Positions 4,258-53,231 of a stretch of DNA of 64,000 nucleotides are shown here, piece by piece. The notes under the pieces were generated by a model, which was given only the letters and a program-made list of their open reading frames with translations, was not told where the DNA came from and searched no databases. Position 1 is the first letter of the stretch; the number at the start of each line of letters is the position of its first letter. Origin of the DNA: Syntrophales bacterium (GTDB lineage: Bacteria; Desulfobacterota; Syntrophia; Syntrophales; PHBD01). A program made the translations under genes and the position numbers. The stretch covers positions 2,112,001 to 2,176,000 of the forward strand of contig OY764159.1 in the NCBI GenBank assembly GCA_963668175.1, read 5' to 3'.

Positions 4258-4635
4258 ATGGTTCCTGTAGAAGTGATCGTCGGTGTACAGAGGCGACGTC
4301 GCTGGTCGGCTGCCGAGAAGAAGTCGATGGTGCGGGAGGCGGAGCAGCCGGGAATGAGCATCTCGGCTGTAGCCCGGAAGTATGACATCCATCCGAACCA
4401 GTTGTTCCACTGGCGCAGGCTTGCCGAAGAAGGGGCTCTGTCGGCGGTTGGTGCAGATGAAGGCGTCGTTCCTGCATCGGAAGCCAGAGAACTGAAAAAG
4501 CAGATCCGGGAGTTGGAGCGTCTTCTGGGCAAAAAGACAATGGAGGTGGAGATATTAAGGGAGGCTGTCCGGATTGCCCGTGAAAAAAAACTGATCTCGC
4601 GGTTGCCGTTGTTGCCGGAGGACGATTCCCGATGA
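4258..4635 (+). CDS. IS2-type transposase OrfA (HTH)
   Basis: RRRRWSAAEK...SISAVARKYDIHPNQLFHWR; start codon uncertain. Confidence 0.88.
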   Translation: MVPVEVIVGVQRRRRWSAAEKKSMVREAEQPGMSISAVARKYDIHPNQLFHWRRLAEEGALSAVGADEGVVPASEARELKKQIRELERLLGKKTMEVEILREAVRIAREKKLISRLPLLPEDDSR

Positions 4636-5480: not shown

Positions 5481-5818
5481 GGGCAACTCCACGAGGTGCC
5501 TTTAGGATGTACAATTATTCCATATCGAGTTAGGAATGATGGATCTGTGAAAACCCAGGAAGAGATAAGTATTCCATTACGGACAAGTTTAGATACCCAA
5601 CTAATCTCAGATCAATTAACAAAGGCCATATTATCGAACATTAGACATGATTGGATTCGATTTGAAGAGATACGAAATGGAGTTGAGAGCCAGGGAACAT
5701 CAAAGCCGCAGAAGAAAACACTTGCGCATGCACTCAAAGAGCTTCAATGGCTCGGTTGCATCGAGATTAGGAATTCTGAAGAGGATGCGAAGCATTGGCA
5801 AGTCAAAAGGACGGAGTC

Positions 5819-7819
5819 ATGATGAAATCGCCTTTTCAAACGGCCAGATTTGAATATGAAGGAGAACATCTCTATTTTTTGCCAACAAATTTCATGAATG
5901 TTCTTGAATTACCTAAACCCGTTTACTTGATAGGATCCAGGGGTACAGGAAAAACTACGCTTCTTAAGGCATTAAATTGGAATGAACGAATTAACAATAC
6001 TTCTTTGCAGCGACAATTGGGATCAGATATTTTTATTAAGAGGTATATTGGTGTCTACTTCAAATTGCCTGATCATCGCTTTGATGCCCTTGATGCGAAG
6101 CTGCAACAAGAAAATAAAGACTTAGGCAATTTGATAAGATCTTTATATATAGATGTACTTGGTTTACAGCTCCTTGTCGATGCCATTTCCGAATTAATCA
6201 TCAATAAAATCATTATGGCCACACCAAAAGACGAGCAGAAATGTGTAACGTCAATTCTTGAGGACTTTGAAGAGTGGTTTCAGCCAATCATTGAGAATAT
6301 ATTTTCAAAAAAGCCTGCAACATTAAAGAATCTTAATAATTTGTTTCGTAGTATTCAGTTGACGATTGAACGATATGCGATCTATGGAGGAGAAGCTTCA
6401 TCTGTCGCGTCTGATTACACTGGTCAAATTGGTGAATTTGGAAGATGCGTTGCAAAGCGACTCGGTGAACTGTGCAATATACAAATCGATGAACCGATGT
6501 ATAAATGGTTTTTCAAAATCTGTATGGACGAGGGTGAGTGTCTAAGCAATAACGACCGTCTGGTATTTAACACAATGACCCGTCTTTCAGAATGGCCACT
6601 ATTTCACGTAGTATGCTTTGTTGAACGTCCAGAGGATATATCGAGCACGTTGATTCCGAATTTAACATTGTCTGATGCTGATCGCACACTGATATTGCTT
6701 GAAGATATGACTGATAGGGAATTCCGAATTCTGGGAGAAGGAGTGGCGACAATTCGGATGCAAGAGTTGCTGGAAGATTTTACCGTTAAATTTGATACCA
6801 AGATGTGTTTAGGAAAATTGAATATAAATAAGATGGCGATGTCTATCTTGGAAGAATCAACAAGTAGAAAAGCAAAAGATCTTCTAGCGAATGCGCGTGA
6901 GAAAATGAAAGATCCCATTATTTGTAATATGCTCTCAGGAAAGGCTGATCAACGCGCGGATGATGAAGATACGCTGATCGAAAAAAGTGAAGAAATAAAT
7001 TTAGATCTACTGCCCATTTATCAGACGTATCTTATTCAGAAACTTAATTTGGTATTACCGACGCCCGATGATCCGCAGTGGGCGAGAAGAGCACAGGAAA
7101 GCGCAGAGTTGAGAAAGAAAATGGTGGCAGCATATTTATCACTATGTGATGAGATGGGGATGAATGTTCGTTATGCGACAGCTGATATGGTTCTGCAAAT
7201 GAGTGATAAATGTATTCGTGATTTCTTGACTTTTATACATGAAATATTCATCGAAAGCAAGTTCAGCCTACATAATTTTATAAAGAATCAAGTTCCAATG
7301 AAAATTCAGGATAAAGCAATTAAACATGCCAGCAATCTAAAGAGAAATTCGTTAAAGCAGTCTGGAATAATATCACCAACTGAAGCTGGGCGTATAATCG
7401 ATGCTCTCGCGAAAATTACTAAATATATTCAAACGAAGAGTCCAGATCTTTCTCATTTAGAGGCCACTGAAAGAGGAAAATTCACTTTATCAATGCAGCC
7501 AACAGAAAGGGAAATATTCACTTCGGTGTTAAAATTGATTAAAGATGCAGCTCAGGCAGGGTTTTTAATCATCTCTCAGGAGGGTGAATCAAAATGGAAA
7601 TTCAGGGTTCATACCTCACTGGCCGCATTTTTTGGTTTTTCATATCGTGGGGCGTACTATGATACACCTCTGGATATTAAGGAATTAGACGCTATCAGAC
7701 AGAGTTCTGACCTAGATGATTTTGAGAAGCATGTTGAGAAAATATCCAAGAGATTAGCAGGCTGGAAGAATGATATAGGAACCCTATTTGAGTGGAATAA
7801 AGATGGAAACAGTATTTAG
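5819..7819 (+). CDS. P-loop NTPase (ORC/CDC6-like / STAND-like AAA ATPase)
   Basis: Walker A GSRGTGKT, Walker B ICMDEGE; ATG overlaps the upstream TGA (ATGA at 5819-5822). Confidence 0.8.
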   Translation: MMKSPFQTARFEYEGEHLYFLPTNFMNVLELPKPVYLIGSRGTGKTTLLKALNWNERINNTSLQRQLGSDIFIKRYIGVYFKLPDHRFDALDAKLQQENKDLGNLIRSLYIDVLGLQLLVDAISELIINKIIMATPKDEQKCVTSILEDFEEWFQPIIENIFSKKPATLKNLNNLFRSIQLTIERYAIYGGEASSVASDYTGQIGEFGRCVAKRLGELCNIQIDEPMYKWFFKICMDEGECLSNNDRLVFNTMTRLSEWPLFHVVCFVERPEDISSTLIPNLTLSDADRTLILLEDMTDREFRILGEGVATIRMQELLEDFTVKFDTKMCLGKLNINKMAMSILEESTSRKAKDLLANAREKMKDPIICNMLSGKADQRADDEDTLIEKSEEINLDLLPIYQTYLIQKLNLVLPTPDDPQWARRAQESAELRKKMVAAYLSLCDEMGMNVRYATADMVLQMSDKCIRDFLTFIHEIFIESKFSLHNFIKNQVPMKIQDKAIKHASNLKRNSLKQSGIISPTEAGRIIDALAKITKYIQTKSPDLSHLEATERGKFTLSMQPTEREIFTSVLKLIKDAAQAGFLIISQEGESKWKFRVHTSLAAFFGFSYRGAYYDTPLDIKELDAIRQSSDLDDFEKHVEKISKRLAGWKNDIGTLFEWNKDGNSI

Positions 7820-8819
7820 ACAATCATATCTCAAAGGGACGTCAAACAGATTAAACGATGTAAAACAACTTGAGGGAAAATATGATTTGTTCATATGTGC
7901 CTCAAGTTGGGATGGGAGGTGTGTTTGTGTAACGGATTCAAAAATCAGTGTGGATTATGCTATTCCCATATTTTTCAGCGTACGAGATAACATGGGGCTT
8001 CGTGATAAATATGATAAACTGATTTTAAAATACTGCAAAAGAATAGCAGCAAGAACGATTCCTATATCAGGAGCGTCGATAAACGTTGAAATGATGTGGA
8101 ATGATTTACATAAAAATATTTTGACAATAATGGAGAGTGTGCATCGTCCTTTGGATATAATAATTGATATTTCAACGCTGCCACGATATTACTACGGTGC
8201 TATTTGTGCCTTAGGAATTAAGACGGGATTTGCTCATAAGATTACCTGTTTCTATGCTGAGGCAAACTATCCACCCCCCAATCAAGCAGAGCAGGAAATC
8301 GCATTCACAGGAGGCAGTTGGAGGGCAATTCCAATTCCCGGGCTATTGGGTGATTATGATCCGAGAAAGAAAAGATTTTACTTAGTTTCAATTGGTTTTG
8401 AAGGATGGAAAACACTTCGTGTCGTTTCAAGGGCTGATCCAGAAAGAGTATCAATATTATTTCCTGATCCCGGATTTGATATGGAATATCCTGATAGAAC
8501 ACTAAATAATAATCAAGAACTGATCTGGCAATACAAAGTACCTGATACACAAGTCGTAAAAGCACATGCTGGTGATGCAATAGGAGCTTGGAAAGCGCTG
8601 AGCATTAATTCAGTAGAGAGGGCTGAAGAGGAGAATACATATTATCTCTGCAGTGGCACAAAACCGCATTCATTAGCCATGATTTTAAGGGCTATGGCGC
8701 TCAAATATCCAGTCGTCCTCTACAATCGGCCTGATGAACATAATGTAGTATTAATTGAGCCGAATGGAAAATATTGGAAATATGAAATTAAAGATTTAAC
8801 GGTATGTCGATATGAGTGA
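7803..8819 (+). CDS. Hypothetical protein, possibly CARF/Rossmann-like partner of the ATPase
   Basis: DISTLPRYY, IGFEG, PDPGF, SGTKPHSLA motifs; overlaps both neighbours. Confidence 0.6.
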   Translation: METVFRQSYLKGTSNRLNDVKQLEGKYDLFICASSWDGRCVCVTDSKISVDYAIPIFFSVRDNMGLRDKYDKLILKYCKRIAARTIPISGASINVEMMWNDLHKNILTIMESVHRPLDIIIDISTLPRYYYGAICALGIKTGFAHKITCFYAEANYPPPNQAEQEIAFTGGSWRAIPIPGLLGDYDPRKKRFYLVSIGFEGWKTLRVVSRADPERVSILFPDPGFDMEYPDRTLNNNQELIWQYKVPDTQVVKAHAGDAIGAWKALSINSVERAEEENTYYLCSGTKPHSLAMILRAMALKYPVVLYNRPDEHNVVLIEPNGKYWKYEIKDLTVCRYE

Positions 8820-9663
8820 TGAGAATCAACCGGTTTTCCCCATCCTAAAATGGCCGGGGGGAAAGTCATGGTTAGCCGAGAGACTTAGTCAGATTATTGG
8901 AGATGAGATTGCTACTAATGGCACATATTATGAGCCATTCTTAGGTGCAGGTTCTATATATTTCTATTTTCGACCAGAAAAGAGTATCTTGTCAGATGTA
9001 AATCCAGCACTGATAAATTTTTATAAATGTCTGAGAAATAATTCAGATAAGATTATTAAACGTGTGTGGTCATTTTCGAATAAAAGCGAATGTTATTATA
9101 AAGTGCGGAATATGCACCCTCGAACAGACATTGGAGAATCTGCGAGATTTCTATACCTAAATAAAACATGCTGGGGTGGTGTGTATAGACTGAATCAAAA
9201 AGGTGAATATAATGTACCATTTGGTAATTCAGGGAGGAAAATATGCAGTCGCAATAGGGTCTTAGCTGCTGCGGACGCTTTGCGCAATGCAACTCTGATA
9301 TGCTCAGATTTTGAACCTATAATGACAGCGGCTAAGAATGGAGATTGTATATACGCCGATCCACCATATAGTACCTTAGGGCAGAACAACGGATTCCTCC
9401 GGTATAATGAGAGATTATTCAAGTGGTCAGATCAACAAAGACTTGCCAGATCATGCCGAGATTCTGCCGATAGGGGTGCATTTGTCGCGATAAGTGCACT
9501 TTGGCATGATGATATATTAAAGTTGTTCCCTGATTGGTGGGCATGGAAAATAGAAAGAAAGTCACTAATAAGCAGAAAAATTGAAGGGCGTCGTTCAATT
9601 TGTGAAGTTGTTATATTCAGTAATAAGCCGGGATCGATATCAGAAAACATTACAAAAATATAA
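8812..9663 (+). CDS. Dam-family (D12 class) N6-adenine DNA methyltransferase
   Basis: KWPGGKSWL, YYEPFLGAGS, FLYLNKTCWGG.YR.N..G.YNVPFG, catalytic YADPPY. Confidence 0.93.
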   Translation: MSDENQPVFPILKWPGGKSWLAERLSQIIGDEIATNGTYYEPFLGAGSIYFYFRPEKSILSDVNPALINFYKCLRNNSDKIIKRVWSFSNKSECYYKVRNMHPRTDIGESARFLYLNKTCWGGVYRLNQKGEYNVPFGNSGRKICSRNRVLAAADALRNATLICSDFEPIMTAAKNGDCIYADPPYSTLGQNNGFLRYNERLFKWSDQQRLARSCRDSADRGAFVAISALWHDDILKLFPDWWAWKIERKSLISRKIEGRRSICEVVIFSNKPGSISENITKI

Positions 9664-30920: not shown

Positions 30921-31496
30921 ATGACTTCTAAATTGAGGCGGCTGCTTGCATGGAAAAATCGAATTTTTAAGGGTTTCACGCTCTGGCCGACCATCGTGAT
31001 GCTGTTGTATTTCCTGCAATGGTGGGTATTATTTTATTGCCAAGATGACGTTATCCAATTTTTTTTATTCATTATATTGGTGTTCTTATTTCCGGCAGTC
31101 TGTTTTATTTGTGCACTGGTGTTGCTCGGAAGAAAAAAACCGAAGTCGTCTTTATCCTTACTTACCCCGGCATTGCTTGTGGTCTTTATGTTTCCTCTGG
31201 GGAGTAATCCTATCAAAGATATTTTCTACGATTCACGCCAATATGTAGAATTCCAAATCCAGAAAAGATTCTATTTCCCGGAGATGAACGACCCCGATAA
31301 GCTGCCCCCATACAAAGAATGGCTTATCAAAGGGCATCCTAATATCTCTAAGTATACAATTGTTTACGATTTAAATGAATCCCTGGATGAGAGAGAAAAA
31401 AGGAAAAAAGCCGAATTGCATGACCCAAAATACTGGGGTTACCGCATAACGAGAGTCGGTCGGCATTTCTATATGCTGCATGAATATTACCATTGA
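30921..31496 (+). CDS. Membrane protein, putative immunity protein for the downstream effector
   Basis: Three TM segments plus soluble C-terminal part; shares V.FQ...Y, Y.+.YD and G.HFY motifs with 41668-42243. Confidence 0.65.
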   Translation: MTSKLRRLLAWKNRIFKGFTLWPTIVMLLYFLQWWVLFYCQDDVIQFFLFIILVFLFPAVCFICALVLLGRKKPKSSLSLLTPALLVVFMFPLGSNPIKDIFYDSRQYVEFQIQKRFYFPEMNDPDKLPPYKEWLIKGHPNISKYTIVYDLNESLDEREKRKKAELHDPKYWGYRITRVGRHFYMLHEYYH

Positions 31497-31521: not shown

Positions 31522-32892
31522 ATGGGACGATACGGGGCGGATCATTTCTTTGTTAAAGAAAACGGTAATAATGTCGCTGCAAAGTATCTCAAAGACACAA
31601 ATGGAAACTATATTATGGACGGTTCAACCGGGCGGCCGTATGTCGTCCCAGCCGATTTTAATCTGGACGCAGTGATTGCAAAATATAAACCTCCTTATTG
31701 GCAGTCGCTTGAACCTATCGATATTGCAACGCGCCTGGAAACGTATGTAAAATTGTTATCGAATTTTAGAAGCGGTCGGCCGGACGACTTGCAGACAGCC
31801 TATAATGGAAAGGTTGGAGCCAACTGGGTCGAGGACTTTCGGCCGGCAGCAAACTATGTGTTCGGTGCGGCGTGCTCCGCGGCAGGTTTAACCTTGCATG
31901 AATGCATGGCTGGCGGGGGAGTGTATAACCTTAAAAAAGCCCTTTGGGATAAAAACCCCGATATTGATCCCTCCGGGATATTTGGAAATAATCCGGCCAA
32001 TGTTCGACATATCAAACAGGGCTATCTGAGCCAGTTTGATCGAAATGCGCCACAACCGACTCCGTTTGATGTTAAGTTCACCGATTCCGGCAAAACAGCC
32101 ATCGTGACGGAAAACGGCAAGACATCCGTGTATAAGGCAGTTACGGGAAAGTCAAATACGACCTGGAAATATGTTCCGGTGGAGGGGGGCGGCATCGATG
32201 CGGCGGTAGATGCCGGGATCTATACGGTCCAACGCGGCAATGTCCTTGGCGATATCGCAGCCAAATTTCATACCACCGTTCAACAAATCATGGAGGCGAA
32301 TCCCGATATCAAGAATCCGGATTCGATCCGCCCCGGACAGCGAATCGTATTGCCGAAAAACGACCCCTCCGGCCCCGCCGACAACAAGAAGGACCCCGAT
32401 CCCGACCGGCAGGGCGCGACAGACCGGGGAGGCGACAACGACCGGCAATCCCGGAACATCTCCCATGATGACGGATTTACAGTGATCGCCTCAAGCGGCG
32501 GCCCGGATGTTAACGAAAACACAAGTGCTGCCGCTCCTGCCGCTGACGCGCCGGCCGGCTTTTCCGCCGATCCGTTGCGTCATGCGCTGGACGCGCTGGG
32601 GGTGAAGCCCCGCGATGTGCAATTCACCCCGGCGGCGGACTACGGGAATATAAAACCGGACTCCTTCGATATGGTGGATAAGGGCACATCCGAAAAGATA
32701 GGCTCTTGTTTGATGACTCCCGACGGCGGCGAGATGACCGCGGGCGACAGGAAGGTCGTGATGGACCGGATAAGCGGCAACGACATTCACCTGCAAACGT
32801 ACGCCAAAAACGACGACGGAGAATATGAACTCGTTGGGACGACGCGAATCGGCGACAACGACGGGGTAACGGTGACAAGGCCGTTTGCATAA
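31522..32892 (+). CDS. Putative effector 1: Ntox44-like N-terminus, LysM domain, shared C-terminal domain
   Basis: AANYVFGAA..AAG...GGG.YN...FGNNP.....I..GY; LysM YTVQRGNVLGDIAAKFHTTVQQIMEANPDIKNPDSIRPGQRIVLP. Confidence 0.75.
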   Translation: MGRYGADHFFVKENGNNVAAKYLKDTNGNYIMDGSTGRPYVVPADFNLDAVIAKYKPPYWQSLEPIDIATRLETYVKLLSNFRSGRPDDLQTAYNGKVGANWVEDFRPAANYVFGAACSAAGLTLHECMAGGGVYNLKKALWDKNPDIDPSGIFGNNPANVRHIKQGYLSQFDRNAPQPTPFDVKFTDSGKTAIVTENGKTSVYKAVTGKSNTTWKYVPVEGGGIDAAVDAGIYTVQRGNVLGDIAAKFHTTVQQIMEANPDIKNPDSIRPGQRIVLPKNDPSGPADNKKDPDPDRQGATDRGGDNDRQSRNISHDDGFTVIASSGGPDVNENTSAAAPAADAPAGFSADPLRHALDALGVKPRDVQFTPAADYGNIKPDSFDMVDKGTSEKIGSCLMTPDGGEMTAGDRKVVMDRISGNDIHLQTYAKNDDGEYELVGTTRIGDNDGVTVTRPFA

Positions 32893-32952
32893 TATCGGCG
32901 GGCCGACCAGCGCCGCGACGCGGCTGGGGGCGAAGCGGTCGCAACGGAAAGC

Positions 32953-33099
32953 AATGCCTGGGAAAGCGTCCCTGACAAGGGGACGGGTCCCCCGAATGGG
33001 GGAAGGTCCCCCGCATGGGGGAAAGTCCCCCGCATGGGGGAAAGTCCCCCGCATGGGGGACGGTATCCTCAGAATTTCGTCAAAATTCCGACAACGGAG
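32953..33099 (+). repeat. Hairpin block, copy 2 (4x TCCCCCG(C/A)ATGGGGGA, 19-bp period)
   Basis: Units at 32988, 33007, 33026 and 33045. Confidence 0.92.
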
Positions 33100-33239
33100 G
33101 TTAAAAGGTCAATATGGCGTCACATGATAACGATCCGGGAAGAAAGTACGGACGATCGAGGGAAGAAAGGGGCTGTGGATGCCGGGATGGCGGCGGCTCT
33201 CGTTCCGGCGGATGGCCTCGGTCGCAATTCGGGAAGACG

Positions 33240-33815
33240 ATGCTGCGGGGCATGATCCTGGTCATCCTCCTCCTTTTCACACCGCAGGTCCTCATCGCCG
33301 GCGACATTGAGGATGGGTATGACGAAAACACGATCCGCCCGTCGGACATACCGGCCGACGCCCCCCGGTTTGAAGATTATCCGGCAAAGCTTTACACCGG
33401 GCGCAATGCGGCCCCGGACCTCAAAAGCCACCCGCAGTCGAGGCTGTATCGGACGCGGCTTAAAGAATGGTCGCGCGAGAAACCGAATTTCGCGGGGCAC
33501 TTCATCCTGGCCGCTTGGGGCTGTGGAACCGATTGCACACAGATAGCCATCATCGACGCGAAAACGGGGCGTATTTTTCATCCGCCCGGTGCAACTTACA
33601 ATGTCGCCGTTAACGTGCACGATGATCTGCTGCCAACTTGTGAGCATATTAGAGACAGCTGCGGATCCATTTTGCATCGTCCGGACAGCAGGCTTTTGGT
33701 TATGATCGGTCGGCCTGAAGATAGCGAAAGAGGAATCTGGTATTTTTTATGGGAAAAGAATCGCCTGGTTAAACTGCGTTTCATACCGAAACCCTACAAC
33801 TGGCATGATGATTAG
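33240..33815 (+). CDS. Secreted putative immunity protein, paralog 1
   Basis: Signal peptide MLRGMILVILLLFTPQVLIA; PNFAGHF..AAWGCGTDC; largely identical to the next gene. Confidence 0.75.
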   Translation: MLRGMILVILLLFTPQVLIAGDIEDGYDENTIRPSDIPADAPRFEDYPAKLYTGRNAAPDLKSHPQSRLYRTRLKEWSREKPNFAGHFILAAWGCGTDCTQIAIIDAKTGRIFHPPGATYNVAVNVHDDLLPTCEHIRDSCGSILHRPDSRLLVMIGRPEDSERGIWYFLWEKNRLVKLRFIPKPYNWHDD

Positions 33816-33978
33816 GGCAAATTCACCAAGCACACGCTGATCATGGAGGAATGTTATGGTATCGCATTATAAGAATCCGGGAATCAAGTGCGGACGATCA
33901 AGGAAAGAAAGGGGCTGTGAGTGCCCGGGTGGCGGCTCTCGTTCCGGCGGATGGCCTCGGTCGCAATTCGGGAAGACG

Positions 33979-34554
33979 ATGCTGCGGATCACGATCCTGG
34001 TCATGCTCCTCCTTTTCACGCCGCAGGTCCTCATGGCCGACGACATTGCGGATGGGTATGACGAAAACACGATCCGCCCGTCGGACATACCGGCCGACGC
34101 CCCGCGGTTTGAAGATTATCCGGCAAAGCTTTATACCGGGCGCAATGCGGTGCCCGATCTCAAAAGCCACCCGAGGTCGAGGATGTATCGGACGCGGCTC
34201 AAAGAATGGTCGCGCGAGAAACCGAATTTCGCCGGGCGCTTCATCTTGGCCACTTGGGGCTGTGGAACCGATTGCACACAGATAGCCATCATCGACGCGA
34301 AAACGGGGCGCATTTTTCATCCGCCCGGTGCAACTTCCAATAGTGCCGTTAATGTGCACGATGCTCTGTTTCAACCCGGCAAGAGTATCTGGTACGGCTC
34401 CGGCGCTATCTGGTATCGGCTGGACAGCAGGCTTTTGGTTTTGATCGGCGGGCCTGAAGATAGCGAAAGAGGAATCTGGTATTTTTTATGGGAGAAGGAT
34501 CGCCTGGTTAAGTTGCGTTTCATACCGAAACCCTTCCACTGGAAAAATCCTTAA
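33979..34554 (+). CDS. Secreted putative immunity protein, paralog 2
   Basis: Tandem paralog lying directly upstream of effector 2. Confidence 0.75.
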   Translation: MLRITILVMLLLFTPQVLMADDIADGYDENTIRPSDIPADAPRFEDYPAKLYTGRNAVPDLKSHPRSRMYRTRLKEWSREKPNFAGRFILATWGCGTDCTQIAIIDAKTGRIFHPPGATSNSAVNVHDALFQPGKSIWYGSGAIWYRLDSRLLVLIGGPEDSERGIWYFLWEKDRLVKLRFIPKPFHWKNP

Positions 34555-34593
34555 CCCAAATTAACTGGACAATGTTAATCATGGAGGAATGTT

Positions 34594-35700
34594 ATGGCTT
34601 CGCATTACAATGATCCGGGAATCAAATACGGACACTCAAGGGAAAAAGGGGCTGTCGACGCCGATGTCGCGGAGAAAGTCAAACAGAAAATCGTCACCCA
34701 GGCCAGAGCCGCGCAGCGTCAGGGCGTCCCCATCACGCAAGACGATATCGCCAGGTTAGTGGCCTATGCTGATCTGGAATCAGGGTTCAATCCCGACGCG
34801 GCCAATAAGGACGAATCCCCATCCGGTGTGTTTCAAATTGCGGATGAGACCGCTAAAGACTTCTATAGTCGATTAAACGGTAAATCTTTGATCAACGGTT
34901 ACCAAGTTAAGGGCAATTACGAAGACTACAAGCGATTCGATCCCGATTCGAACATCGCCGTAGGTATCGGTGTCTACCTCGACAAGAAAAGGAAGGCGAA
35001 GTCCGACGATGTCAATAAAATATATAAACGTTGGAATCCAGGAGCCACACCGGCGGAGCAAAAGGCGCTACGGAAACTGTATGAAAAATACAAAAGCATG
35101 AAACTTTCCCTCGATGATTCCGGGAGCGACGCCGACAAAGTCGCCGAGGCGGCGGAGCGGGATTCCGGGCGGACAGCCCCGGCCGGGCAACCGGACGATA
35201 CGTATTCAACCGAAGACAGGAAGAGAAAAGACCTCGCTGCGGGAGACGACGCCGAAGCTGAGACGGCGCGAAGAGGCGACGATTCGGGCGAACGAGAGGC
35301 CGACGATTCCACGAACAATCAGGACGGCGCTTTCAAGGCTGCCGCGAACGGTTCCTCCCTCGGCATACCCGAAGCGCCATGGCGGCACGCGCTGGATGTG
35401 CTGGGCGTGAAGTTCGGCGATGTGCAATTAACCCCGGCGGAGGCGGACGAAGAGAACGAGACACCGGACTCTTTCGACATCAGAGATAACGACACAACGG
35501 AAAAAATCGGCTCTTATGCGGGAACACCCACCGGCTGCGAAATGACCGTGGGCGACAGGAAGGTCGTGATGGACCGGATAAGCGGCAACGACATTCATCT
35601 GCAAACATATGCGAAAAACGACGATGGAGATTTTGAACTCGTTGGGACGACAAGAATCGGCGACAACGACGGGGTCACGGTAAGAAGGACGTTTGTATAA
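34594..35700 (+). CDS. Putative effector 2: lytic transglycosylase/lysozyme-like N-terminus plus shared C-terminal domain
   Basis: LESGFNPDAAN...SPSGVFQI...FDPDSNIAVG..YL; no signal peptide. Confidence 0.8.
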   Translation: MASHYNDPGIKYGHSREKGAVDADVAEKVKQKIVTQARAAQRQGVPITQDDIARLVAYADLESGFNPDAANKDESPSGVFQIADETAKDFYSRLNGKSLINGYQVKGNYEDYKRFDPDSNIAVGIGVYLDKKRKAKSDDVNKIYKRWNPGATPAEQKALRKLYEKYKSMKLSLDDSGSDADKVAEAAERDSGRTAPAGQPDDTYSTEDRKRKDLAAGDDAEAETARRGDDSGEREADDSTNNQDGAFKAAANGSSLGIPEAPWRHALDVLGVKFGDVQLTPAEADEENETPDSFDIRDNDTTEKIGSYAGTPTGCEMTVGDRKVVMDRISGNDIHLQTYAKNDDGDFELVGTTRIGDNDGVTVRRTFV

Positions 35701-35797
35701 TATCGGCTGGCCGGTAACCGCCGCGAAGCAGGCAGGCGAAAAAGGGGGACCCGTGAAATCCGAAGGCCCGGACGGGTAGGGCGGGAAGGGAGGGCAG

Positions 35798-36007
35798 TTG
35801 GGCAAAACGCTGATAGGGAAGGATGAGATCAAGGCCTACACCCGCCGCTCGTGGCAGACGATCCAGGCCTGGATCGACACGGAGAACTTCCCGGCGCGGA
35901 AGATCGGGGGCATCTGGGAATCGAACAAGGACCTCGTGGACGAATGGCGCCGCAACAACATCCTCAAACGGCCGCTGGTGGGGAATTATCCAGATATCAT
36001 CAGTTGA
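35798..36007 (+). CDS. Small phage-type HTH (excisionase/AlpA-like) protein
   Basis: IKAYTRRSWQTIQAWI....FPARKIGGIWES. Confidence 0.7.
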   Translation: MGKTLIGKDEIKAYTRRSWQTIQAWIDTENFPARKIGGIWESNKDLVDEWRRNNILKRPLVGNYPDIIS

Positions 36008-36031
36008 TAACGCGTAAGCTGCTTTATTTGT

Positions 36032-38760
36032 CTAGTGTTGCGGGTAATCGGAAGCCTTTGAAAGCTCTTTGACCTTCCATAAGAAGTACAATTCATCTTG
36101 ACTGATCGTCTCTTTCTTGTCGCTCTTCGCCATGGTTTCTTCAATGACTTCCGCACCTATTTTAGTCGCTCCAAATGCAGCAGCGCCTGCCAGCGGCGTT
36201 GTAAAGATTCCAGTTAGAAAACCAACAGATATAGCACCCGTCCATCCTGCAATTTTGCGCACAACTCCCTTAAAAAGGGATTTATCAGCTTTGCTAATTT
36301 TAGCGCTCAGAGATGCTAAGCGTGGTTGAAGAATGTCCGCATAAACTGCTTGAGCATCTCTCTCTGTAAATGAGTCACCCGCTATCTTGTATTCTTCTAT
36401 CGCTTTGGTCAATGCTGCTCTGAACAAAATGAATGCTTCTTGTTCGCTATTTCGAAGTTTTATAAGGCTTTGTGCGTCAACAGATTCAACGAAAGGAAGA
36501 AGGCAGGTAAGATATTTTTGCATAAGCATTGTATGCCGCCTAGCTATCGGATCACCCGTTAAGTTCTTTATGAAATTAATTTCGAGATCACTATCAGTGG
36601 AGTTGCCCCTATTTCACCGGACACTGTTCTAACTTATTTTGATGTCTCCTATACTCCCTGGGCGACATCATTTTCAATCCCTTGTGCGGATGGTTTTCAT
36701 TGTAGTCTACGAACCATCCGGGCAGTTGCTTCATGACCGTTTCGGCATCAGTCAGGATATTCAGATGAACATAATCCCTCTTGAAGGTCTTGACAAAGGA
36801 TTCGGCCATGCCGTTCGATTCCGGGCTGTAGAACGGGGTCGTGCAAACCTCAAGCCCCATCATCTGCCCAAAGCTTTTCGTTTCCCTGGCGGTGTACGCA
36901 GGACCATTATCGCTCAGCCACTGGATTCTGTGAGGCAGCCGATTGATCATACCGAAACGGGCCTCAATGGCTTCCGCCATCAAGTCCCTGACCATGTCGC
37001 CGGATACGCCCCCTGTCGTGGCTACATAACTCATGATTTCCCTGTCGCAACAATCCATGCTGAACGCTACCCGGAGACGGTCCCCATTCCAGCAGGCAAT
37101 CTCAAACGCATCGGAACACCAACGAAGATCGCTCCGTCTCGTCGTGACCTTACCCTCGTGAAGCCTTGCCGGCCTACCCGTATGCCGCTGAAGAAGCAGA
37201 TTGTGCATCTTCATGAGACGATAAATCCGTTTGGGGTTAACTCCCGGATGCCCCTGACGTTCCAGAAACCTGTTGATTCTTGCCGTTACTCTCCGATAGC
37301 CGTAACTGGGACGATTATCAATAACCTGCCTGATCAGAAGAAGATATCTGCCATCGTCGCCTCTCCTGTAATGGCGGCTTCTCGAATCGGCTTCCTTCCC
37401 TTGCCTTTCGTACTGCCGGGAACGGGAAACGTCCAGCGTATCGACAACCGTCTTCATCGGGAATCGTCCTCCGGCAACAACGGCAACCGCGAGATCAGTT
37501 TTTTTTCACGGGCAATCCGGACAGCCTCTCTTAATATCTCCACCTCCATTGTCTTTTTGCCCAGAAGACGCTCCAACTCCCGGATCTGCTTCTTCAGTTC
37601 TCTGGCTTCCGATGCAGGAACGACGCCTTCATCTGCACCAACCGCCGACAGAGCCCCTTCTTCGGCAAGCCTGCGCCAGTGGAACAGTTGGTTCGGATGG
37701 ATGTCATACTTCCGGGCTACAGCCGAGATGCTCATTCCCGGCTGCTCCGCCTCCCGCACCGTCGACTTCTTCTCGGCAGCCGACCAGCGACGTCGCCTCT
37801 GTACACCGACGATCACTTCTACAGGAACCATAAACACCTTCTTTCTGGTTGTAGTAATATCTCTATATCTATTCCTACAACTTATTTCCAGATTCAAAGT
37901 GTCCGGTTCAATTGGGGGCTACTTCAATCAGACAAGAATGATGTCTTCAGCAAATCAGCAACACCTAATTCAAAGGCGATATTGTGAATGAGCGGTGTGA
38001 AGGGTATGTTATGCGCCTTAAGCTTTTTAGCTTGATCTGTGGTTAGCTTAATTATTCCACATTTTTTGACCTGCTCTACAAGCCTTGGAGCTTTACTATA
38101 GATTTCGTCCTGGATAAGATAAGTATGACACCACAAACCATGAGGTAATATTGAATCTGGCCCAGAACTGATTAGTGTCATTTCGTCATTCTTATAAATG
38201 AGTGAGTATGCTACTTCCTTCAAAAACCTTCTACGTAACGCATCTGACAACACGTTATATCTTGGGTTCTTATCCTGCGATAGAGCATCTATACATAGAC
38301 AATGCGGACAAACATTGCCAAAAGAAACCATCTGGACTATGTCAGATTCAATTAAAGGCAGTAATTCACAAAATACAATCAAATCATCCAAGAATTTATA
38401 GCGGAAAAAGGCCTCTAAATTCGCTGGTTTTCTATCAGCATACGCAAGTAAGTCTGTAAAATAATTCTTGATGAAAACCTTATCACTGTATAAAGCGGCA
38501 AACTGTGTCAACTCTCTAATCTTTTCAATTCGGCATGAAGGACTGGAACATGGATATGAACTTCCACCCAAAGATGGCGCTGCGGCGTGAGAGAATATCG
38601 ACGGACTGGCATTTATATTGGTATAATGTGTTATATCGGTGGATTGTTGGCAAACATCAATAATATGGCTTGCCTTCAGTTTGCGAATATACTTTATGAT
38701 TGGTTTGCCATTTCTTATCAACCCGGCATTTTCAAACAAAGCCTTAAGAGGGTGTTCCAT
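36032..38760 (-). pseudogene. Low-GC hypothetical gene (~465 aa) interrupted by an IS
   Basis: Removing the IS and one ATCAG copy joins ...KTSFLSD to SDLEINFIK...MLMQKY in frame. Confidence 0.85.
36598..37926 (-). mobile_element. Second copy of the IS2-group IS3 element, 1329 bp, TSD ATCAG
   Basis: Nearly identical to 4163-5491 in inverted orientation; ATCAG at 36593-36597 and 37927-37931; orfB 36609-37457, orfA 37454-37831. Confidence 0.97.
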
Positions 38761-39046
38761 ATTCTTTTATACCTATAAATTATTATCGTGACAGCCTCGT
38801 ATATGCCCTTTATTTACCAGCTGTTAACGGAACTATGAGGCAGTTTATTGTGTGTGTCAAGAAAAAATGGACGAAATTGCTAGAACTATCATTAGATATT
38901 TCGTCGCTTTAACATATTGAGTCCACGATAATTCCGGTACGCCTACATATTTTCCCCCTTTTCCCTCGGTCAGACACCGGCGGACTTGACGCTGGCGGCT
39001 ATCCGTCAAGCGCAATAAAAGGTCATTCTTCCGCTATACGCCCGAA

Positions 39047-39192
39047 TCGGTAAATAATCATTATATAATACTATATTTATATTGCATTAGGCCGTTTATC
39101 GTTTATAATATCAGTATAATATCCTGACATGGCCGGATGGCGAGGGGGAGTTCGTAACCGTTTGATATTTTTATGCGAGGTGCATCATGAAT
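39047..39192 (+). repeat. Second copy of the ~146-bp promoter/leader block
   Basis: Matches 30554-30699; supplies RBS and ATG of the 39187 gene. Confidence 0.92.
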
Positions 39193-39891
39193 GAAAAGAG
39201 CCGTGAAGTAAAAAGAAGCGCCGCGACGATGAGCCGGAAGGACGATCGACCGGGCATCCGGTGCGCGACGATTCGATCCGCCTGCCTTCTTTTTATGGCC
39301 CTGTTCGTTTTGGCCTGGAGTCCGGGAGCATTCGCAGCGGAACCCGGCAGCCCCGCATTGTCCCAAGATAAGGAAGGTCAAGCCGCCGGGGAGAACGCAG
39401 GCGGGGAATTCAAAAAATATCGTGCCGTATTCAGCGAGCTGGTTTGCGGAGATGTCAAGGCATTGGCGGTAAGAATACGATCAGAGGAAGACAGCTTTCC
39501 TTTGATTGAAGCTGTTGACCAGAGAATATACTTTATCAACAAGACCGGCCGGATCAAGCTTGTCAAGGATTCATGGGATAACAAGTTGAATCGAAACAGG
39601 ATTAATTCTTCGGGATATATTTATCCCGCAGTATCCTGGGATTGTACGAGAGATAAGAGAGGAAAACCTTACATCATTATTTTCTCATGGTCCGGCGGTA
39701 ATTATCGGGGAGCCGAATGGACCGAAATCTATGATCTGGATGGCAGATTGGTGGCGAGCAACTATTCAGAAAAGATAAAGAATTTTCGACGCATCAATGA
39801 TTTGTTTGACAAGAAAATAGAAAAATTAGGAATTCGTTACGATTGGAGATCTGCAAAAAAAATCAGATTTAAAGAACAAGACGGGAGGTAA
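39187..39891 (+). CDS. Secreted putative immunity protein for effector 3 (true start may be further downstream)
   Basis: Hydrophobic signal ...LFMALFVLAWSPGAFA; ends 5 bp before effector 3. Confidence 0.65.
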   Translation: MNEKSREVKRSAATMSRKDDRPGIRCATIRSACLLFMALFVLAWSPGAFAAEPGSPALSQDKEGQAAGENAGGEFKKYRAVFSELVCGDVKALAVRIRSEEDSFPLIEAVDQRIYFINKTGRIKLVKDSWDNKLNRNRINSSGYIYPAVSWDCTRDKRGKPYIIIFSWSGGNYRGAEWTEIYDLDGRLVASNYSEKIKNFRRINDLFDKKIEKLGIRYDWRSAKKIRFKEQDGR

Positions 39892-39896
39892 GCTGG

Positions 39897-41093
39897 ATGC
39901 CGAAAGAAACAAATTACAATATCTTAATCGATAAAACGCCTGGCCGTTCTGCCGGGAACAGTCGAAAAGCAGGGGCTGCTCCATACGAAGTGAAGGTGAA
40001 AGCCGTGGAAGCGATCAGGAAGTATGCAGGTCTTTATGGATTCAATGAACATCAGACCAGCGAAGTCTTGAAAATCGTGGAACACGAATCTGGATTTAAT
40101 CCAGATGCTGCGAATCCAGACACAACTGCGTCCGGACTAGGACAGATGATGAATGACACGTTTGAGCAGTATGGGCCGCGTGGTGCGAATATTTTCGATC
40201 TGGATGCCAACGCAGAGGCAACAGTCAGATACTATCAACATTGCCTGAACAAAGCCGCAGAGAAAGGACTGACCGGAGAGAAGTTGGATACAGGTGCGTA
40301 TGCGTGTTATCATGACGGCCCGTGGAATTTTAAAGCCGGTAAGGATAAAAAAGGTGCGGATATTTATAAAAAGGTCATTAAAAAATTATCCGGTAAGCCC
40401 AAGGTTAGCAGTAACGAACGCTCCTCCAGCAACTCCGACAAGGTAGCCGAGGCGACGGAACGGGATTCCGAGCGGACAGCCGCGGCTGAGCAGCCGGACG
40501 ATGCTTATTCAACCGAAGACAGGAAGAGAAAAGACCTCGCGGGAGACGACGCCGAATCTGAAACGGCGTGGAGAGGCGGAAATTCAGATCGTCGAAGCAT
40601 ACCTAATTCATGGATAGCGGATGCCGGTAACGTGCTTTCAGATGTGTCCGGAAATGCTCTTCAAAGCGCCCTCCGCGAGGCAAGAAAGCCAACGGATGTC
40701 GAATCGGCCGCGAACACGATGACGCTTCGTGAGGCGCCGACCGATTTGCTTGCCGAACCGGGTTCTCCATTGCAGCACGTAATGGATGCGCTGGGGGTGT
40801 CGTCCGGCGATGTGCATTTAACCCCTGCGGAAGCGGACGATGAGAACGAGACACCGGACTCCTTCGATATTGTGGATAAGGGCACATCCGAAAAGATAGG
40901 CTCTTGTTTGACGACACCCGGCGGCTGCGAGATGACCGCAGGCGACCGGAAGGTCGTGATGGACCGGATAAGCGGTAATGACATTCACCTGCAAACGTAT
41001 GCCAAAAACGACGATGGAGATTTTGAGCTCGTTGGCACAACGCGAATCGGCGACAACGACGGGGTAACGGCAAGAAGGCCGTTTGCGGGTTAG
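39897..41093 (+). CDS. Putative effector 3: lytic transglycosylase-like N-terminus plus shared C-terminal domain
   Basis: IDKTPGRSAGNSR, HESGFNPDAANPDTTASGLGQM, YACYHDGP; no signal peptide. Confidence 0.8.
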   Translation: MPKETNYNILIDKTPGRSAGNSRKAGAAPYEVKVKAVEAIRKYAGLYGFNEHQTSEVLKIVEHESGFNPDAANPDTTASGLGQMMNDTFEQYGPRGANIFDLDANAEATVRYYQHCLNKAAEKGLTGEKLDTGAYACYHDGPWNFKAGKDKKGADIYKKVIKKLSGKPKVSSNERSSSNSDKVAEATERDSERTAAAEQPDDAYSTEDRKRKDLAGDDAESETAWRGGNSDRRSIPNSWIADAGNVLSDVSGNALQSALREARKPTDVESAANTMTLREAPTDLLAEPGSPLQHVMDALGVSSGDVHLTPAEADDENETPDSFDIVDKGTSEKIGSCLTTPGGCEMTAGDRKVVMDRISGNDIHLQTYAKNDDGDFELVGTTRIGDNDGVTARRPFAG

Positions 41094-41667: not shown

Positions 41668-42243
41668 ATGACATCCGCTTCCGATCAAACCGTTAATACT
41701 GCGCCGGAGTCGCTCACAAGCGATCATTATACAATCTTTCATTTAATCCTCCAGCTCGCTTTTGCCGCGCTGTTATTCTTTTTGAACGAACTCGATAGAA
41801 GGCTGAATCTCTATCTGCTGCTGGTTCCGCTCCTCCTTGTCCCGGCATTAGTAGTGGTGATTATCTGGCTGACCAGCGTCATAACAAACAGCATTAGAAA
41901 GAGGTGGCGTCGTCTCGCTTCCGCCGTCATTGCACCGGTGATCATTTTTTGCCTCATGGCCTCGCTTGCTCACTGGCGGATCGATGCGGATTGGGTACGC
42001 TTTCAGGCAAACCATCGACACTATGAAAAATCGGTACAGTTCCTCAAGGGGCCGCACCCCAGACATGTTACGTGGGATTGGGGCCATACCGGAGGCGCGG
42101 CGGTCGTCTGCATTGATTACGAACTCCACTACGACGAATCCGATTTAACAAAGCTCCGAGATGGAGAGAGGAAAGGGGGCGGTATCATCAGAGTCCGCGA
42201 TTTCGGAAACCACTTCTACCTCGTTACCGCCGTCTATCAATAG
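41668..42243 (+). CDS. Membrane protein, orphan homolog of the 30921 immunity-like gene
   Basis: Three TM segments; WVRFQ...HY, YELHYDESD, RVRDFGNHFYLV; same length (191 aa). Confidence 0.65.
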   Translation: MTSASDQTVNTAPESLTSDHYTIFHLILQLAFAALLFFLNELDRRLNLYLLLVPLLLVPALVVVIIWLTSVITNSIRKRWRRLASAVIAPVIIFCLMASLAHWRIDADWVRFQANHRHYEKSVQFLKGPHPRHVTWDWGHTGGAAVVCIDYELHYDESDLTKLRDGERKGGGIIRVRDFGNHFYLVTAVYQ

Positions 42244-45741: not shown

Positions 45742-46692
45742 TTATTTTCCGAACTTCCTTCTTGCGCGCCTCCTGCAGGGGGCAACCGCAACACCTGCCA
45801 AGCCGAAACCAAGAAGCAGCATGGTACCCGGTTCAGGAACGGGTGTCGAACTCTGCATGTTCCCAATGAATCCATGGACATTTTGTTCGGCATCTTGGTA
45901 ATATCCCACGATCTGGCCGTTGTCGTTGATGCCGGTAAGAAAGGTGCCGCCCACACCATCCGGGTTGTCAATGATCGTGCAATCCGAATCACTGCAAAGG
46001 AACCCGTGCGTGATTCCGTCTTGATAGAAATACCCGACGATTTGCATTGAATTGTTGATTCCCGTTGCGTACGTTTCGACCGCTCCCGGATATTGGACTG
46101 CCCGGACCACTGTTTTAGTCGGCCAGGAATAGATTCTGCTTATCTCCAGCAAACCGTTGTAAACCGCAATGTCGCCTTTGTTATTAATTGCATAAGCGAG
46201 TACATTGTCTTGTATGTGCCATATTTTTGCCTCGGTGGTATTGTAAAGGAAAGCATACTGGCTCAATATTCCCGTGTAATATCCGACAATGTCGCCGTTG
46301 TCGTTGATTCCGGAAGGCCTCATCGAAAAATTACCATAGTAGATCCATCTCAACTCCGTTCCGTCAGTGCTGCGAACGAAACCGTCCGTGTGGTCATTTT
46401 TTATTCCTGTACCGACAATCTGACCGCTATTATTGATGCCCGTCAAAAAGGTGTTGCCATCGCCGACCTTAACAGTCGTGTAAGTCCCTCCACTGTCTCG
46501 CACGAAACCAGAGTACCCTTCGCCCGGGACTGCAAAACTGCCGACGACCTCGCCGGAATTATTGATCCCATTTGCGTAGGTAAGAGTAGCGCCCGGAACA
46601 TCGATAGCGGTAAACGTATAGTCGGCATGAGCTACATTAAATCCTATGACTAAAAAAAGCGTTGGGAGTAATGCTGCAAAAGCCTTTTTCAT
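45742..46692 (-). CDS. PEP-CTERM protein with HAF/GIN-type extracellular repeats
   Basis: Signal peptide; repeated GINNSGQIVG; VPEPGTMLLLGFGLAG. Confidence 0.92.
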   Translation of the reverse strand: MKKAFAALLPTLFLVIGFNVAHADYTFTAIDVPGATLTYANGINNSGEVVGSFAVPGEGYSGFVRDSGGTYTTVKVGDGNTFLTGINNSGQIVGTGIKNDHTDGFVRSTDGTELRWIYYGNFSMRPSGINDNGDIVGYYTGILSQYAFLYNTTEAKIWHIQDNVLAYAINNKGDIAVYNGLLEISRIYSWPTKTVVRAVQYPGAVETYATGINNSMQIVGYFYQDGITHGFLCSDSDCTIIDNPDGVGGTFLTGINDNGQIVGYYQDAEQNVHGFIGNMQSSTPVPEPGTMLLLGFGLAGVAVAPCRRRARRKFGK

Positions 46693-47862: not shown

Positions 47863-48483
47863 ATGAAAAAGATCTTACTGACACTCTGCATGACATTCAT
47901 TCTTTTTACGGCTCCGGTCCAGGCGGCCAATGTCACCCTGATCGACCAGGGTGCGACATGGAACTATTCGGTTCTTAGCACGGACCTGTGGTCCAATTGG
48001 TCGGCGGCCGGATACGCATCGTTCAACTGGGCCGATGCCGCGTGGTCGACCGGTAACGCCGCGTTCGGCAACGCCTCATTTACGTTGCCCTATCAGACTT
48101 ATTGGGGGGCAAATACCGATCTGGCGCTTCAGAAAGTTTTCACCATCAACGGTACGCTTTCCGGGCCTTTAACGCTTAACGTCGCCGCCGATAACGGGTT
48201 CATCGTCTTCATCAACGGTCACGAGGTAGCCAAACGGAATGCGGAAGGAATTACCAATTACTGGCAATATACGTTGCAGCTTTCTTCACTCGATTTCATC
48301 GCTCCGGGCAGCAATACCATTCAGGTGCTGGCGGAAGATCACGGCATCATGACGTTCTTTGACTTGAAATTGACGGGAAACGTCGACCCTGTCCTTAACC
48401 CTGTTCCAGAGCCCGTTACGATTCTGCTGCTCGGCCTCGGACTGACAGGTGTCGCTGTTGCAAGGAGAAAATGCAACCGATAG
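47863..48483 (+). CDS. PEP-CTERM protein
   Basis: Signal peptide; ADNG..VFINGHEV; VPEPVTILLLGLGL; possible sigma54 site at 47809-47824. Confidence 0.9.
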   Translation: MKKILLTLCMTFILFTAPVQAANVTLIDQGATWNYSVLSTDLWSNWSAAGYASFNWADAAWSTGNAAFGNASFTLPYQTYWGANTDLALQKVFTINGTLSGPLTLNVAADNGFIVFINGHEVAKRNAEGITNYWQYTLQLSSLDFIAPGSNTIQVLAEDHGIMTFFDLKLTGNVDPVLNPVPEPVTILLLGLGLTGVAVARRKCNR

Positions 48484-52188: not shown

Positions 52189-52872
52189 TTATTTCCGAAA
52201 TCTCTTCCTGGCAACCGCAACGCCGGCCAGACCCAGACCGAGGAGCAGCATTGTCGCGGGCTCAGGTGCCGGTACGATGGAGATGTCATCGATATATTGG
52301 GTCAGCGAACGGCATTCCGCAGCGTCTCGTGTAATTAAGATGTCGATGGTGTGTTGCCCTGCGGACACAAAAGCGTCGAAATCCAACTCGCCGCGCTGTA
52401 CGGTTCCGGCAACGATTGAGCCGACAGAGAAGGTGTCGAGAAGTATGCCGTCCAGCAGAAGGGAAAATGTTCCGCCATCCAAATTGTAGCCGCCGTAGAG
52501 CGTGGAATTATTGACCGCCACGTTGGCATGCAGGGATATCCACCCTCCGGAAAAATTCACGGACTGCCTGATGCCGCCGCCCTCGGTTGGCATGGGGCAA
52601 TAATATCCGGGAACTGAACAGGGGGCTATGTGGTATCCCACGCTCACGGCCAGGGCCGGAGAACTGACGCCGGAGCCGGCAACGTCAAAATTTGATACGG
52701 TTGGGAGGTTTGTTCCCAGAGTGCCATTGGTTGTGGTATAGGTCGTCCACGGATCCAGATTGCCCGTCTCAAAATCCCCGTTGACGAGCGCTGCTTGTGC
52801 GGTGCCTAAAGAAAGAACAATCATCAACAGAACGAGGCCAACTTGTCTTAGAAACACATCGCGTCGATTCAT
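52189..52872 (-). CDS. PEP-CTERM protein
   Basis: Signal peptide, LVNGDFETG, APEPATMLLLGLGLAGVAVARKRFRK. Confidence 0.92.
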   Translation of the reverse strand: MNRRDVFLRQVGLVLLMIVLSLGTAQAALVNGDFETGNLDPWTTYTTTNGTLGTNLPTVSNFDVAGSGVSSPALAVSVGYHIAPCSVPGYYCPMPTEGGGIRQSVNFSGGWISLHANVAVNNSTLYGGYNLDGGTFSLLLDGILLDTFSVGSIVAGTVQRGELDFDAFVSAGQHTIDILITRDAAECRSLTQYIDDISIVPAPEPATMLLLGLGLAGVAVARKRFRK

Positions 52873-53231
52873 AGGACCCCCCGGTTCCCCCATTATTTCG
52901 CAAGTGGTTTACTCCCCTGCTTTTGCCATATATTCCTATAAATAGCAAATATTATTCTAATATTTTTTAAAAACAATATAGATATTAAGCCCTTAATAAC
53001 CATATAACGTCACTCCACTTATCATGCCGAGGTGACGCGGAAAGGTGAGGGTAAGTATGTGTAGCCGACATCACACTCCCTGTCCCTGCTTCCCCTCCAA
53101 CTGAACAGAAGCATACCGCTTGACGCTGACTCTCCCGGCATGATCCGTCAGAGTCACTATCTGAAACGTGGAATGGATTAAATGATGAAGCGAACCGAGA
53201 CTTCAGGAAGATATCTGCATAACGCGCCGTT

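Follow-up and report, generated by a model that had tools for sequence, protein, structure and literature searches.

In this study, we analyzed a window of 64,000 nucleotides (nt) from a Syntrophales bacterium, the whole stretch presented above, which corresponds to C1:2112001-2176000 in a genome that consists of one contig (C1; 4,567,304 bases) and is rated 100% complete. Three genes in this window encode putative envelope-directed toxins that end in the same block of ~106 amino acids (aa), here called the C-terminal domain (CTD). A role in trafficking is the best reading of the CTD, which is best described as a lineage-restricted variant of a known idea, a constant trafficking module on polymorphic toxins, with a carrier that is putative. 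The three proteins, here called effectors, are the following:

31522..32892, + strand: effector E1 (P0001, 456 aa); head at residues 1-~175, weakly Ntox44-like; LysM at 234-278; P/D/G-rich linker; CTD from residue 351 (nt 32572-32889).
34594..35700, + strand: effector E2 (P0002, 368 aa); SLT lytic transglycosylase at residues 55-155 (E value of 2.4e-07); acidic linker block; CTD from residue 262 (nt 35377-35697).
39897..41093, + strand: effector E3 (P0003, 398 aa); SLT at residues 51-155 (E value of 2.5e-09); disordered linker at 161-283; CTD from residue 291 (nt 40767-41090).

An initial annotation of the window had proposed a conserved C-terminal domain of ~105 aa at three sites, and both protein alignment and DNA repeats bear this out. 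In the alignment, the three open reading frames (ORFs) have the CTD in common from a starting motif, P(L/W)(R/Q)H, at nt 32572, 35377, and 40767 up to the stop codon, with relatedness clear over ~106 residues and the final ~60 nearly identical across the three proteins. A DNA repeat finder recovered the same three copies (32569-32868, 35377-35676, and 40767-41066, with 70-84% identity to the reference copy). Across the genome, nine copies were found by six-frame search at E values of 2.5e-71 to 1.3e-22, which puts their similarity far beyond chance: three are those in the window and six lie in a second cluster at C1:2.798-2.821 Mb. Two of the six genes in the second cluster are broken (C1:2800189-2801355 and C1:2819877-2821205), one being a P0005-type gene split by an in-frame stop and the other having stop-containing sequence in place of part of the CTD; eight copies are described as intact in the comparisons.

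Upstream of the CTD, the window proteins carry linkers that are acidic and, as had been suspected, probably disordered. In the three window genes, aspartate and glutamate make up 18-27% of the 90 aa that precede the CTD (12-27% across the eight intact copies), and residues 161-283 of E3 are predicted to be a disordered linker from a predicted local distance difference test score (pLDDT) of <50. E2 and E3 also share the ~50-aa linker block that had been noticed earlier, with two stretches of 85% DNA identity encoding the acidic segment (35125-35251 versus 40428-40554, and 35239-35285 versus 40539-40585). In E1, Pfam detects the LysM domain at an E value of 1.9e-14, and the Ntox44 match (E value of 0.0063) lies below the cutoff. 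The effector N termini are alike among paralogues (MGRYGADHFF... and MASHYNDPG...) and, judged by eye, show no hydrophobic leader, so that the effectors appear to lack signal peptides.

The predicted structure of the CTD (AlphaFold2) consists of one N-terminal helix followed by a meander of eight antiparallel strands with tight G/N/D turns. The model made from eight sequences has a mean pLDDT of 76.8 and a pTM of 0.66, and in a full-length model made from 29 sequences most 10-residue blocks of the CTD have a pLDDT of 82-91; confidence in the predicted fold is moderate to good. Neither sequence nor structure led to a known family. Pfam, searched with the three window proteins at E values up to 1, gave nothing on the CTD, NCBIfam gave no CTD match, and a PDB sequence search gave three matches at E values of 1.1-1.3, which are noise. 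Foldseek against PDB found nothing at an E value of ≤0.001 (best match, TarM, with an E value of 0.025 and a TMq of 0.36), and the ESM Atlas held no usable CTD match. The viral structures in BFVD likewise yielded nothing at an E value of ≤0.001 and hence no support for a phage structural relative. Searches in Pfam and with Foldseek, proposed in the initial annotation as the check for an already characterized domain, thus returned no clear match, leaving the CTD an orphan in both sequence and predicted fold, outside any described family. When C-terminal 110-aa segments were clustered across the genome, the clusters were ordinary paralogue families and offered no lead. Three further types of C-terminal signal were rejected: a sorting signal of the PEP-CTERM or LPXTG type, as such signals are short, include a membrane helix, and depend on a leader; an autotransporter-like barrel, which without a leader could not get to the outer membrane of its own cell; and an encapsulin or microcompartment loading peptide, for which the CTD is too large and folded.

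The CTD family is small and confined to one lineage. A word-indexed search of 5.8 billion proteins found 22 CTD relatives, with 61-80% identity over the CTD, and in an exhaustive profile search, 1.84 billion representative proteins yielded 16 matches at an E value of ≤0.001, 14 of them at ≤1e-10; the two weakest (P0039 and P0040) are PA14 and cadherin repeat proteins whose matches span ~27 residues and were set aside as motif-level noise. These are small proteins, the longest one with a CTD in the exhaustive search having 461 aa and the longest relative overall 559 aa. Metagenome contigs with a CTD amounted to two short loci of 1.6-1.7 kb, without usable context. Among the 22 relatives, the heads comprise six with LysM, two with SLT, one with NlpC/P60, and 13 without a Pfam domain; two head types (P0010/P0021 and a 285-aa paralogue in the genome) are rich in Gly and Ala with segments that look zipper-like by eye. 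The heads thus appear to be either peptidoglycan directed (SLT, LysM, and NlpC/P60) or glycine-zipper-like. The E1-type head is nearly restricted to the CTD family: one of its seven matches, the metagenomic protein P0042 (395 aa, 41% identity), is the only such head found outside the family and carries a different, Ala/Pro-rich C-terminal region, which shows that this head type can pair with another tail.

The nature of the heads bears on whether the CTD acts only once it is in the target, with no role in trafficking. In that case, it might bind the envelope to hold or orient a lytic head, as the wall-binding domains of endolysins and bacteriolysins do, or it might regulate the head. A tail attached to lytic heads would fit such a role, yet some members already have LysM as a wall-binding module, and the CTD also occurs on glycine-zipper heads, which by eye look membrane directed rather than wall directed. 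No carbohydrate-binding family matches the CTD, and the export of leaderless proteins would still be unexplained; we therefore consider this explanation improbable.

Next to the effector genes lie genes whose products appear to be exported or to reside in the membrane. Those in the window are the following:

30921..31496, + strand: candidate immunity gene I1 (P0025, 191 aa); hydrophobic membrane helices; directly upstream of E1.
33114..33815, + strand: candidate immunity gene I2a (P0026); likely true start at Met43 (nt 33240), followed by a signal-peptide-like stretch (by eye).
33856..34554, + strand: candidate immunity gene I2b (P0027); signal-peptide-like start; duplicate of I2a in tandem with it, 94% identical in nucleotides over 300 nt; together with I2a, directly upstream of E2.
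39187..39891, + strand: candidate immunity gene I3 (P0028); signal-peptide-like N terminus ending in ...SPGAFA; directly upstream of E3.
41668..42243, + strand: membrane protein P0030; weakly similar to I1 (25% over 118 aa, E value of 0.03), homology uncertain; possibly an orphan immunity gene.

In the long I2a ORF, the first ~25 codons copy the start of E2. I3 shows no relation to I2a, and none of the immunity candidates, including the neighbors in the second cluster, matches a family in Pfam or NCBIfam. Paralogues of I1 stand upstream of the paralogous effector in the second cluster, where genes with a leader or membrane helices lie upstream of most CTD genes and, for two, downstream or also downstream. 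Directly upstream of two SLT-like CTD effectors in that cluster are two repeat-rich proteins (C1:2812056-2813168 and C1:2818545-2819864) with signal-peptide-like starts and many repeats of the GFxD/KWGFID type, as judged by eye; they are probably the immunity proteins of the adjoining effectors. From their position and sequence, we infer that the exported and membrane neighbors are cognate immunity proteins, which would make these loci effector-immunity pairs. Leaderless, envelope-directed toxins with exported neighbors are the signature of toxins that are injected or imported into kin: without a signal peptide, and with a secreted or membrane neighbor as immunity protein, the toxin must leave the producer while bypassing the producer's own periplasm and reach the periplasm of a sister cell.

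The lack of leaders, together with the C-terminal position of the domain, would also suit a domain that is recognized by a type I (ABC/MFP/TolC) or other one-step exporter for export and folds outside the cell, perhaps with calcium. The composition of the proteins points the same way: they are acidic (isoelectric point of 4.8-5.6) with few cysteines, and the tight turns of the CTD are rich in Gly, Asn, and Asp (SGND, NDDG, and GDNDG). Against this, neither RTX nor any other Pfam family matches the CTD at E values up to 1. The earlier observation that RTX and Rhs repeats are lacking accordingly held, on the RTX side through the GGxGxD repeats (PF00353, HemolysinCabind), a test that excludes RTX but not non-RTX type I signals. 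The window contains no ABC, HlyD, or TolC gene. Type I signals are short and poorly conserved, whereas the CTD is well folded and strongly conserved, and export to the medium would leave the periplasmic immunity of kin unexplained. Such an exporter is, in our view, very improbable.

Comparison of the CTDs with each other shows that the domain is under purifying selection. The eight intact copies are 75-90% identical in nucleotides (median, 79%), with longest exact runs of 19-85 nt. Across 28 CTD pairs, the median dS is 0.50 and the median dN is 0.18, and over the last 57 residues dN falls to 0.098 against a dS of 0.42. With dS substantial while dN is low, the conservation of the CTD is upheld by selection, beyond what recent duplication would leave. 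The initial annotation had also argued that high nucleotide identity would allow toxin heads to be swapped by recombination. The identity is in fact moderate, and it is the CTD tree that supports the shuffling of heads and CTDs. In a maximum-likelihood tree of 28 CTDs, whose bootstrap support is not fully settled, the seven head types need 14 changes, where the minimum is 6 and shuffled labels need 14.9 on average (51 of 200 shuffles being as low), and four well-supported clades join CTDs from different heads. This random placement of head types, together with the mixed-head clades, indicates that heads and CTDs have recombined many times. The likeliest factor behind the grouping of the CTDs is the genome of origin, which fits a common lineage-specific partner and gene conversion alike.

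This pattern of conservation also speaks to import, which the signature of the toxins allows for. Here the CTD would be a bacteriocin-like import domain: the protein would be released by lysis or through a one-step exporter, the CTD would bind an outer membrane receptor, and the head would pass into the periplasm of the target with the help of the disordered linker, much as happens with colicins, pesticin, and lectin-like bacteriocins, although here the domains would stand in the reverse order. However, with targets that diversify, a receptor binder should be more variable than the last 60 residues, which are nearly invariant. Known receptor-mediated bacteriocins, moreover, have a C-terminal killing domain and a translocation segment that is rich in Gly and Ser rather than acidic; no lysis or release gene was seen beside the effector genes, and the fold matches of the CTD are at noise level. 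We regard this explanation as unlikely.

The secretion machines of the genome narrow down the possible carriers for a trafficking domain. The initial annotation had suggested VirD4-like coupling proteins or phage structural proteins as partners. VirB4 (PF03135), VirD4 (PF02534), and AAA_10 (PF12846) each gave no match in the complete genome, and neither did a phage-type sheath, while the control genomes were matched; these empty searches remove both proposed partners. What the genome does contain is one complete type VI secretion system (T6SS) locus, at about C1:160-184 kb (~156.4-183.6 kb; loci L010, L011, L012, L020, and L028), which is Francisella-like. It encodes a ClpB/ClpV-like ATPase, a TssM-like protein of 1249 aa, an IglE-type lipoprotein, TssB, TssC, TssK, TssE, TssF (IglH-like), and DotU, as well as an IglI-family protein (E value of 1e-90) and a short VgrG of 173 aa with a weak match to Francisella TssI (E value of 1e-5). 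Three further products, a "putative Hcp" (190 aa, after TssC), a "TssG" (299 aa), and a "PdpA-like" protein (541 aa, before VgrG), are labeled by position only and match no family; the Pfam families Hcp and Phage_GPD have no match anywhere in the genome. PAAR (PF05488) matches a single site, C1:156529-156723, 3 kb upstream of the T6SS locus, and none of the CTD genes; beside the PAAR gene is a gene for a 128-aa protein that is beta-helical by eye. After the IglI-family gene comes the only nonconserved gene of the locus (C1:181655-183562, or L012:11656-13563), whose 635-aa product has no family or PDB match, is 24% identical to a counterpart in genome G064, and has none in genome G047; it is probably the T6SS cluster's own variable effector.

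Sampling of 150 other genomes from the order showed the same type of T6SS in 7, with VgrG proteins that are 53-85% identical, and in two of these relatives the locus is syntenic gene for gene. Judged by record titles, close relatives of the short VgrG occur in 36 loci from Syntrophus, Smithella, other Desulfobacterota, Myxococcota, and one member of the Planctomycetota. This spread contrasts with the statement of a 2023 review that the type of T6SS found in Francisella, T6SS-ii, is exclusive to that genus (PMC10433429). Neither the CTD nor a compact C-terminal T6SS tag is described in the literature that we searched on T6SS marker domains, on T6SS-ii outside Francisella, on the T6SS of Syntrophus and Smithella, and on XVIPCD, a search outside of which lay subscription papers and supplements.

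As no VirB4, VirD4, AAA_10, or phage sheath was found, the T6SS is by exclusion the best candidate carrier, and we tentatively propose a role for the CTD in delivery by, or loading onto, this single Francisella-like system, a link that is drawn by exclusion only. The features of a T6SS cargo effector come together here, namely, a leaderless toxin, an adjacent candidate immunity gene, and a complete T6SS in the genome, with immunity and leaders judged from sequence. The CTD would then be the constant module shared by a small, polymorphic set of antibacterial effectors with variable, periplasm-acting N-terminal heads, and would serve as a handle by which the effectors dock onto what is expelled by the only contact-dependent injector in the genome. 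This docking site could be on the injector's spike or tube, which would consist of the short VgrG, the 541-aa protein encoded upstream of it, the putative Hcp, and PAAR, and the flexible linker would let the toxin head trail behind. A more specific form of this proposal, in which the CTD is a compact C-terminal cargo-loading tag of a Francisella-type (T6SS-ii-like) system that kills other bacteria in a syntrophic Desulfobacterota lineage, is more doubtful.

Several observations weigh against a T6SS link. No T6SS gene (VgrG, Hcp, PAAR, or adaptor) adjoins any of the nine CTD genes, and none is in the window. The CTD profile matches none of the five searched genomes that have the same T6SS type; the whole E3 protein matched none of seven such genomes, and E1 matched three of the seven, only through its LysM region. 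More widely, the CTD was found neither in the eight other genomes of the family nor in a one-genome-per-species set covering 185,579 species (72 pattern matches, none of them a relative). The T6SS locus, being syntenic with that of its relatives, offers no genome-specific gene as a possible adaptor, and its one variable gene, encoding the 635-aa protein, carries no CTD. Comparison by hhalign of the CTD with the short VgrG and with the 128-aa beta-helix protein gave probabilities of <1%. The signal peptides, on which the argument for injection draws, were judged by eye only. Finally, the T6SS secretion domains described so far are mostly N-terminal, and we know of no antibacterial effectors of Francisella-type systems.

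Among known delivery modules, the CTD is, by analogy, functionally most like XVIPCD, found on the X-Tfe effectors of the bacteria-killing type IV secretion system of Xanthomonadales. As described for this system (PMC8740702), XVIPCD is also a constant C-terminal module of ~100-120 residues on leaderless proteins with mostly peptidoglycan hydrolase heads and periplasmic immunity proteins; it has an alpha-alpha-beta-beta-beta fold with a glutamine-rich tail and binds the all-alpha domain of VirD4. The CTD differs in its predicted fold of one helix and eight strands, in tails that end in ...RRPFA(G) with no Gln run, in the lack of any sequence relation, and in a genome without VirD4 or VirB4, and the earlier remark that it has no XVIPCD motifs is thereby upheld.

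A parallel among T6SS domains is WHIX, which (bioRxiv 10.1101/2024.08.21.608442) occurs specifically on peptidoglycan-targeting effectors, allows the toxic domain to be N-terminal, and has neighboring immunity genes with signal peptides. WHIX thus provides a precedent for a T6SS secretion domain that bears N-terminal peptidoglycan-targeting toxins. However, WHIX is large and bipartite (amino acids 148-699 in Awe1, with the first region at 271-476 in a Vibrio protein), lies mostly N-terminally or centrally, and carries a WHxxxH motif as well as a cavity that has been proposed as a cap for the VgrG tail (bioRxiv 10.1101/2024.08.21.608442). The CTD, in contrast, has ~106 aa, is always C-terminal, and contains no WHxxxH motif in the alignment of its eight copies; its tie to a T6SS, unlike that of WHIX, comes from exclusion. 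The MIX, FIX, RIX, and PIX domains resemble the CTD as constant marker or delivery domains of T6SS effectors that are polymorphic, often orphan, and encoded next to immunity genes at a distance from the T6SS cluster. These domains, however, sit at the N terminus, ahead of C-terminal toxins, and occur widely in Proteobacteria, whereas the CTD is C-terminal with N-terminal toxins and belongs to one lineage. The sorting domain of the type IX secretion system (Por_Secre_tail, PF18962) is also a small, all-beta tag of ~80-100 residues at the extreme C terminus of unrelated cargo, but that cargo needs an N-terminal Sec signal, whereas the CTD proteins are leaderless by eye and have no PF18962 match at E values up to 1. 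Type IX systems occur in Bacteroidota. On tests of fold, motif, or family match, we rejected the identification of the CTD with XVIPCD, WHIX, PAAR, RTX, or the type IX C-terminal domain.

The effector cluster in the window also bears marks of rearrangement, and three features accompany the genes described above:

30550..30699, + strand: AT-rich, promoter-like 150-nt element; upstream of the first immunity-effector pair.
30815..30870, + strand: remnant of the E1 5' end, 77% identical to 31525-31580; upstream of the E1 immunity gene.
36609..37897, - strand: IS3-type transposase in two ORFs (HTH_Tnp_1 at 37454-37897 and rve integrase core at 36609-37457); in the low-GC gap between E2 and E3.

The AT-rich element has a second copy at 39043-39192, upstream of the third pair and 96% identical, and these are its only two copies in the genome. 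Its position and its TATAAT-like, AT-rich sequence suggest that it may be a shared promoter; it was not found at the T6SS locus, so that no regulatory link of the effectors to the T6SS emerges from it. The first ~82 nt of E2 are present three times at a spacing of ~740 nt, at 33113-33194 and 33855-33936, before the tandem immunity copies, and at 34593-34674, in E2 itself. These repeated starts of E2, like the E1-start remnant, look like scars of duplication or recombination. GC-rich, hairpin-like repeats (GTCCCCCGCAxGGGGGA) lie at 30711-30813 and 32959-33099. Near the effector cluster are genes for three PEP-CTERM proteins, at 45742-46692 (- strand), 47863-48483 (+ strand), and 52189-52893 (- strand). 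Elsewhere in the window, a block of low GC content (38-49%) at 2583-9663 encodes an 8xMP membrane protein, a metallophosphatase, an ORC/CDC6-like ATPase (674 aa), and a D12 N6-adenine methyltransferase; this block looks like a defense or mobile island.

Constant delivery domains are the main means by which interbacterial toxins are found and sorted, and they can be reused for other cargo. The CTD sits at the unusual, C-terminal end of its proteins and belongs to a lineage of slow-growing anaerobic syntrophs whose antagonistic weapons are essentially unstudied. If the proposal of T6SS delivery is true, these proteins would be the first set of antibacterial effectors for a Francisella-type T6SS, and the CTD, which could be fused to other cargo, would be the first small T6SS delivery domain at a C terminus. 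Should the link hold, this organism would also offer a tractable, nonpathogenic entry to how Francisella-type systems select their cargo. Should it fail, the CTD family would still point to an unrecognized route for the delivery or import of leaderless cell wall toxins.

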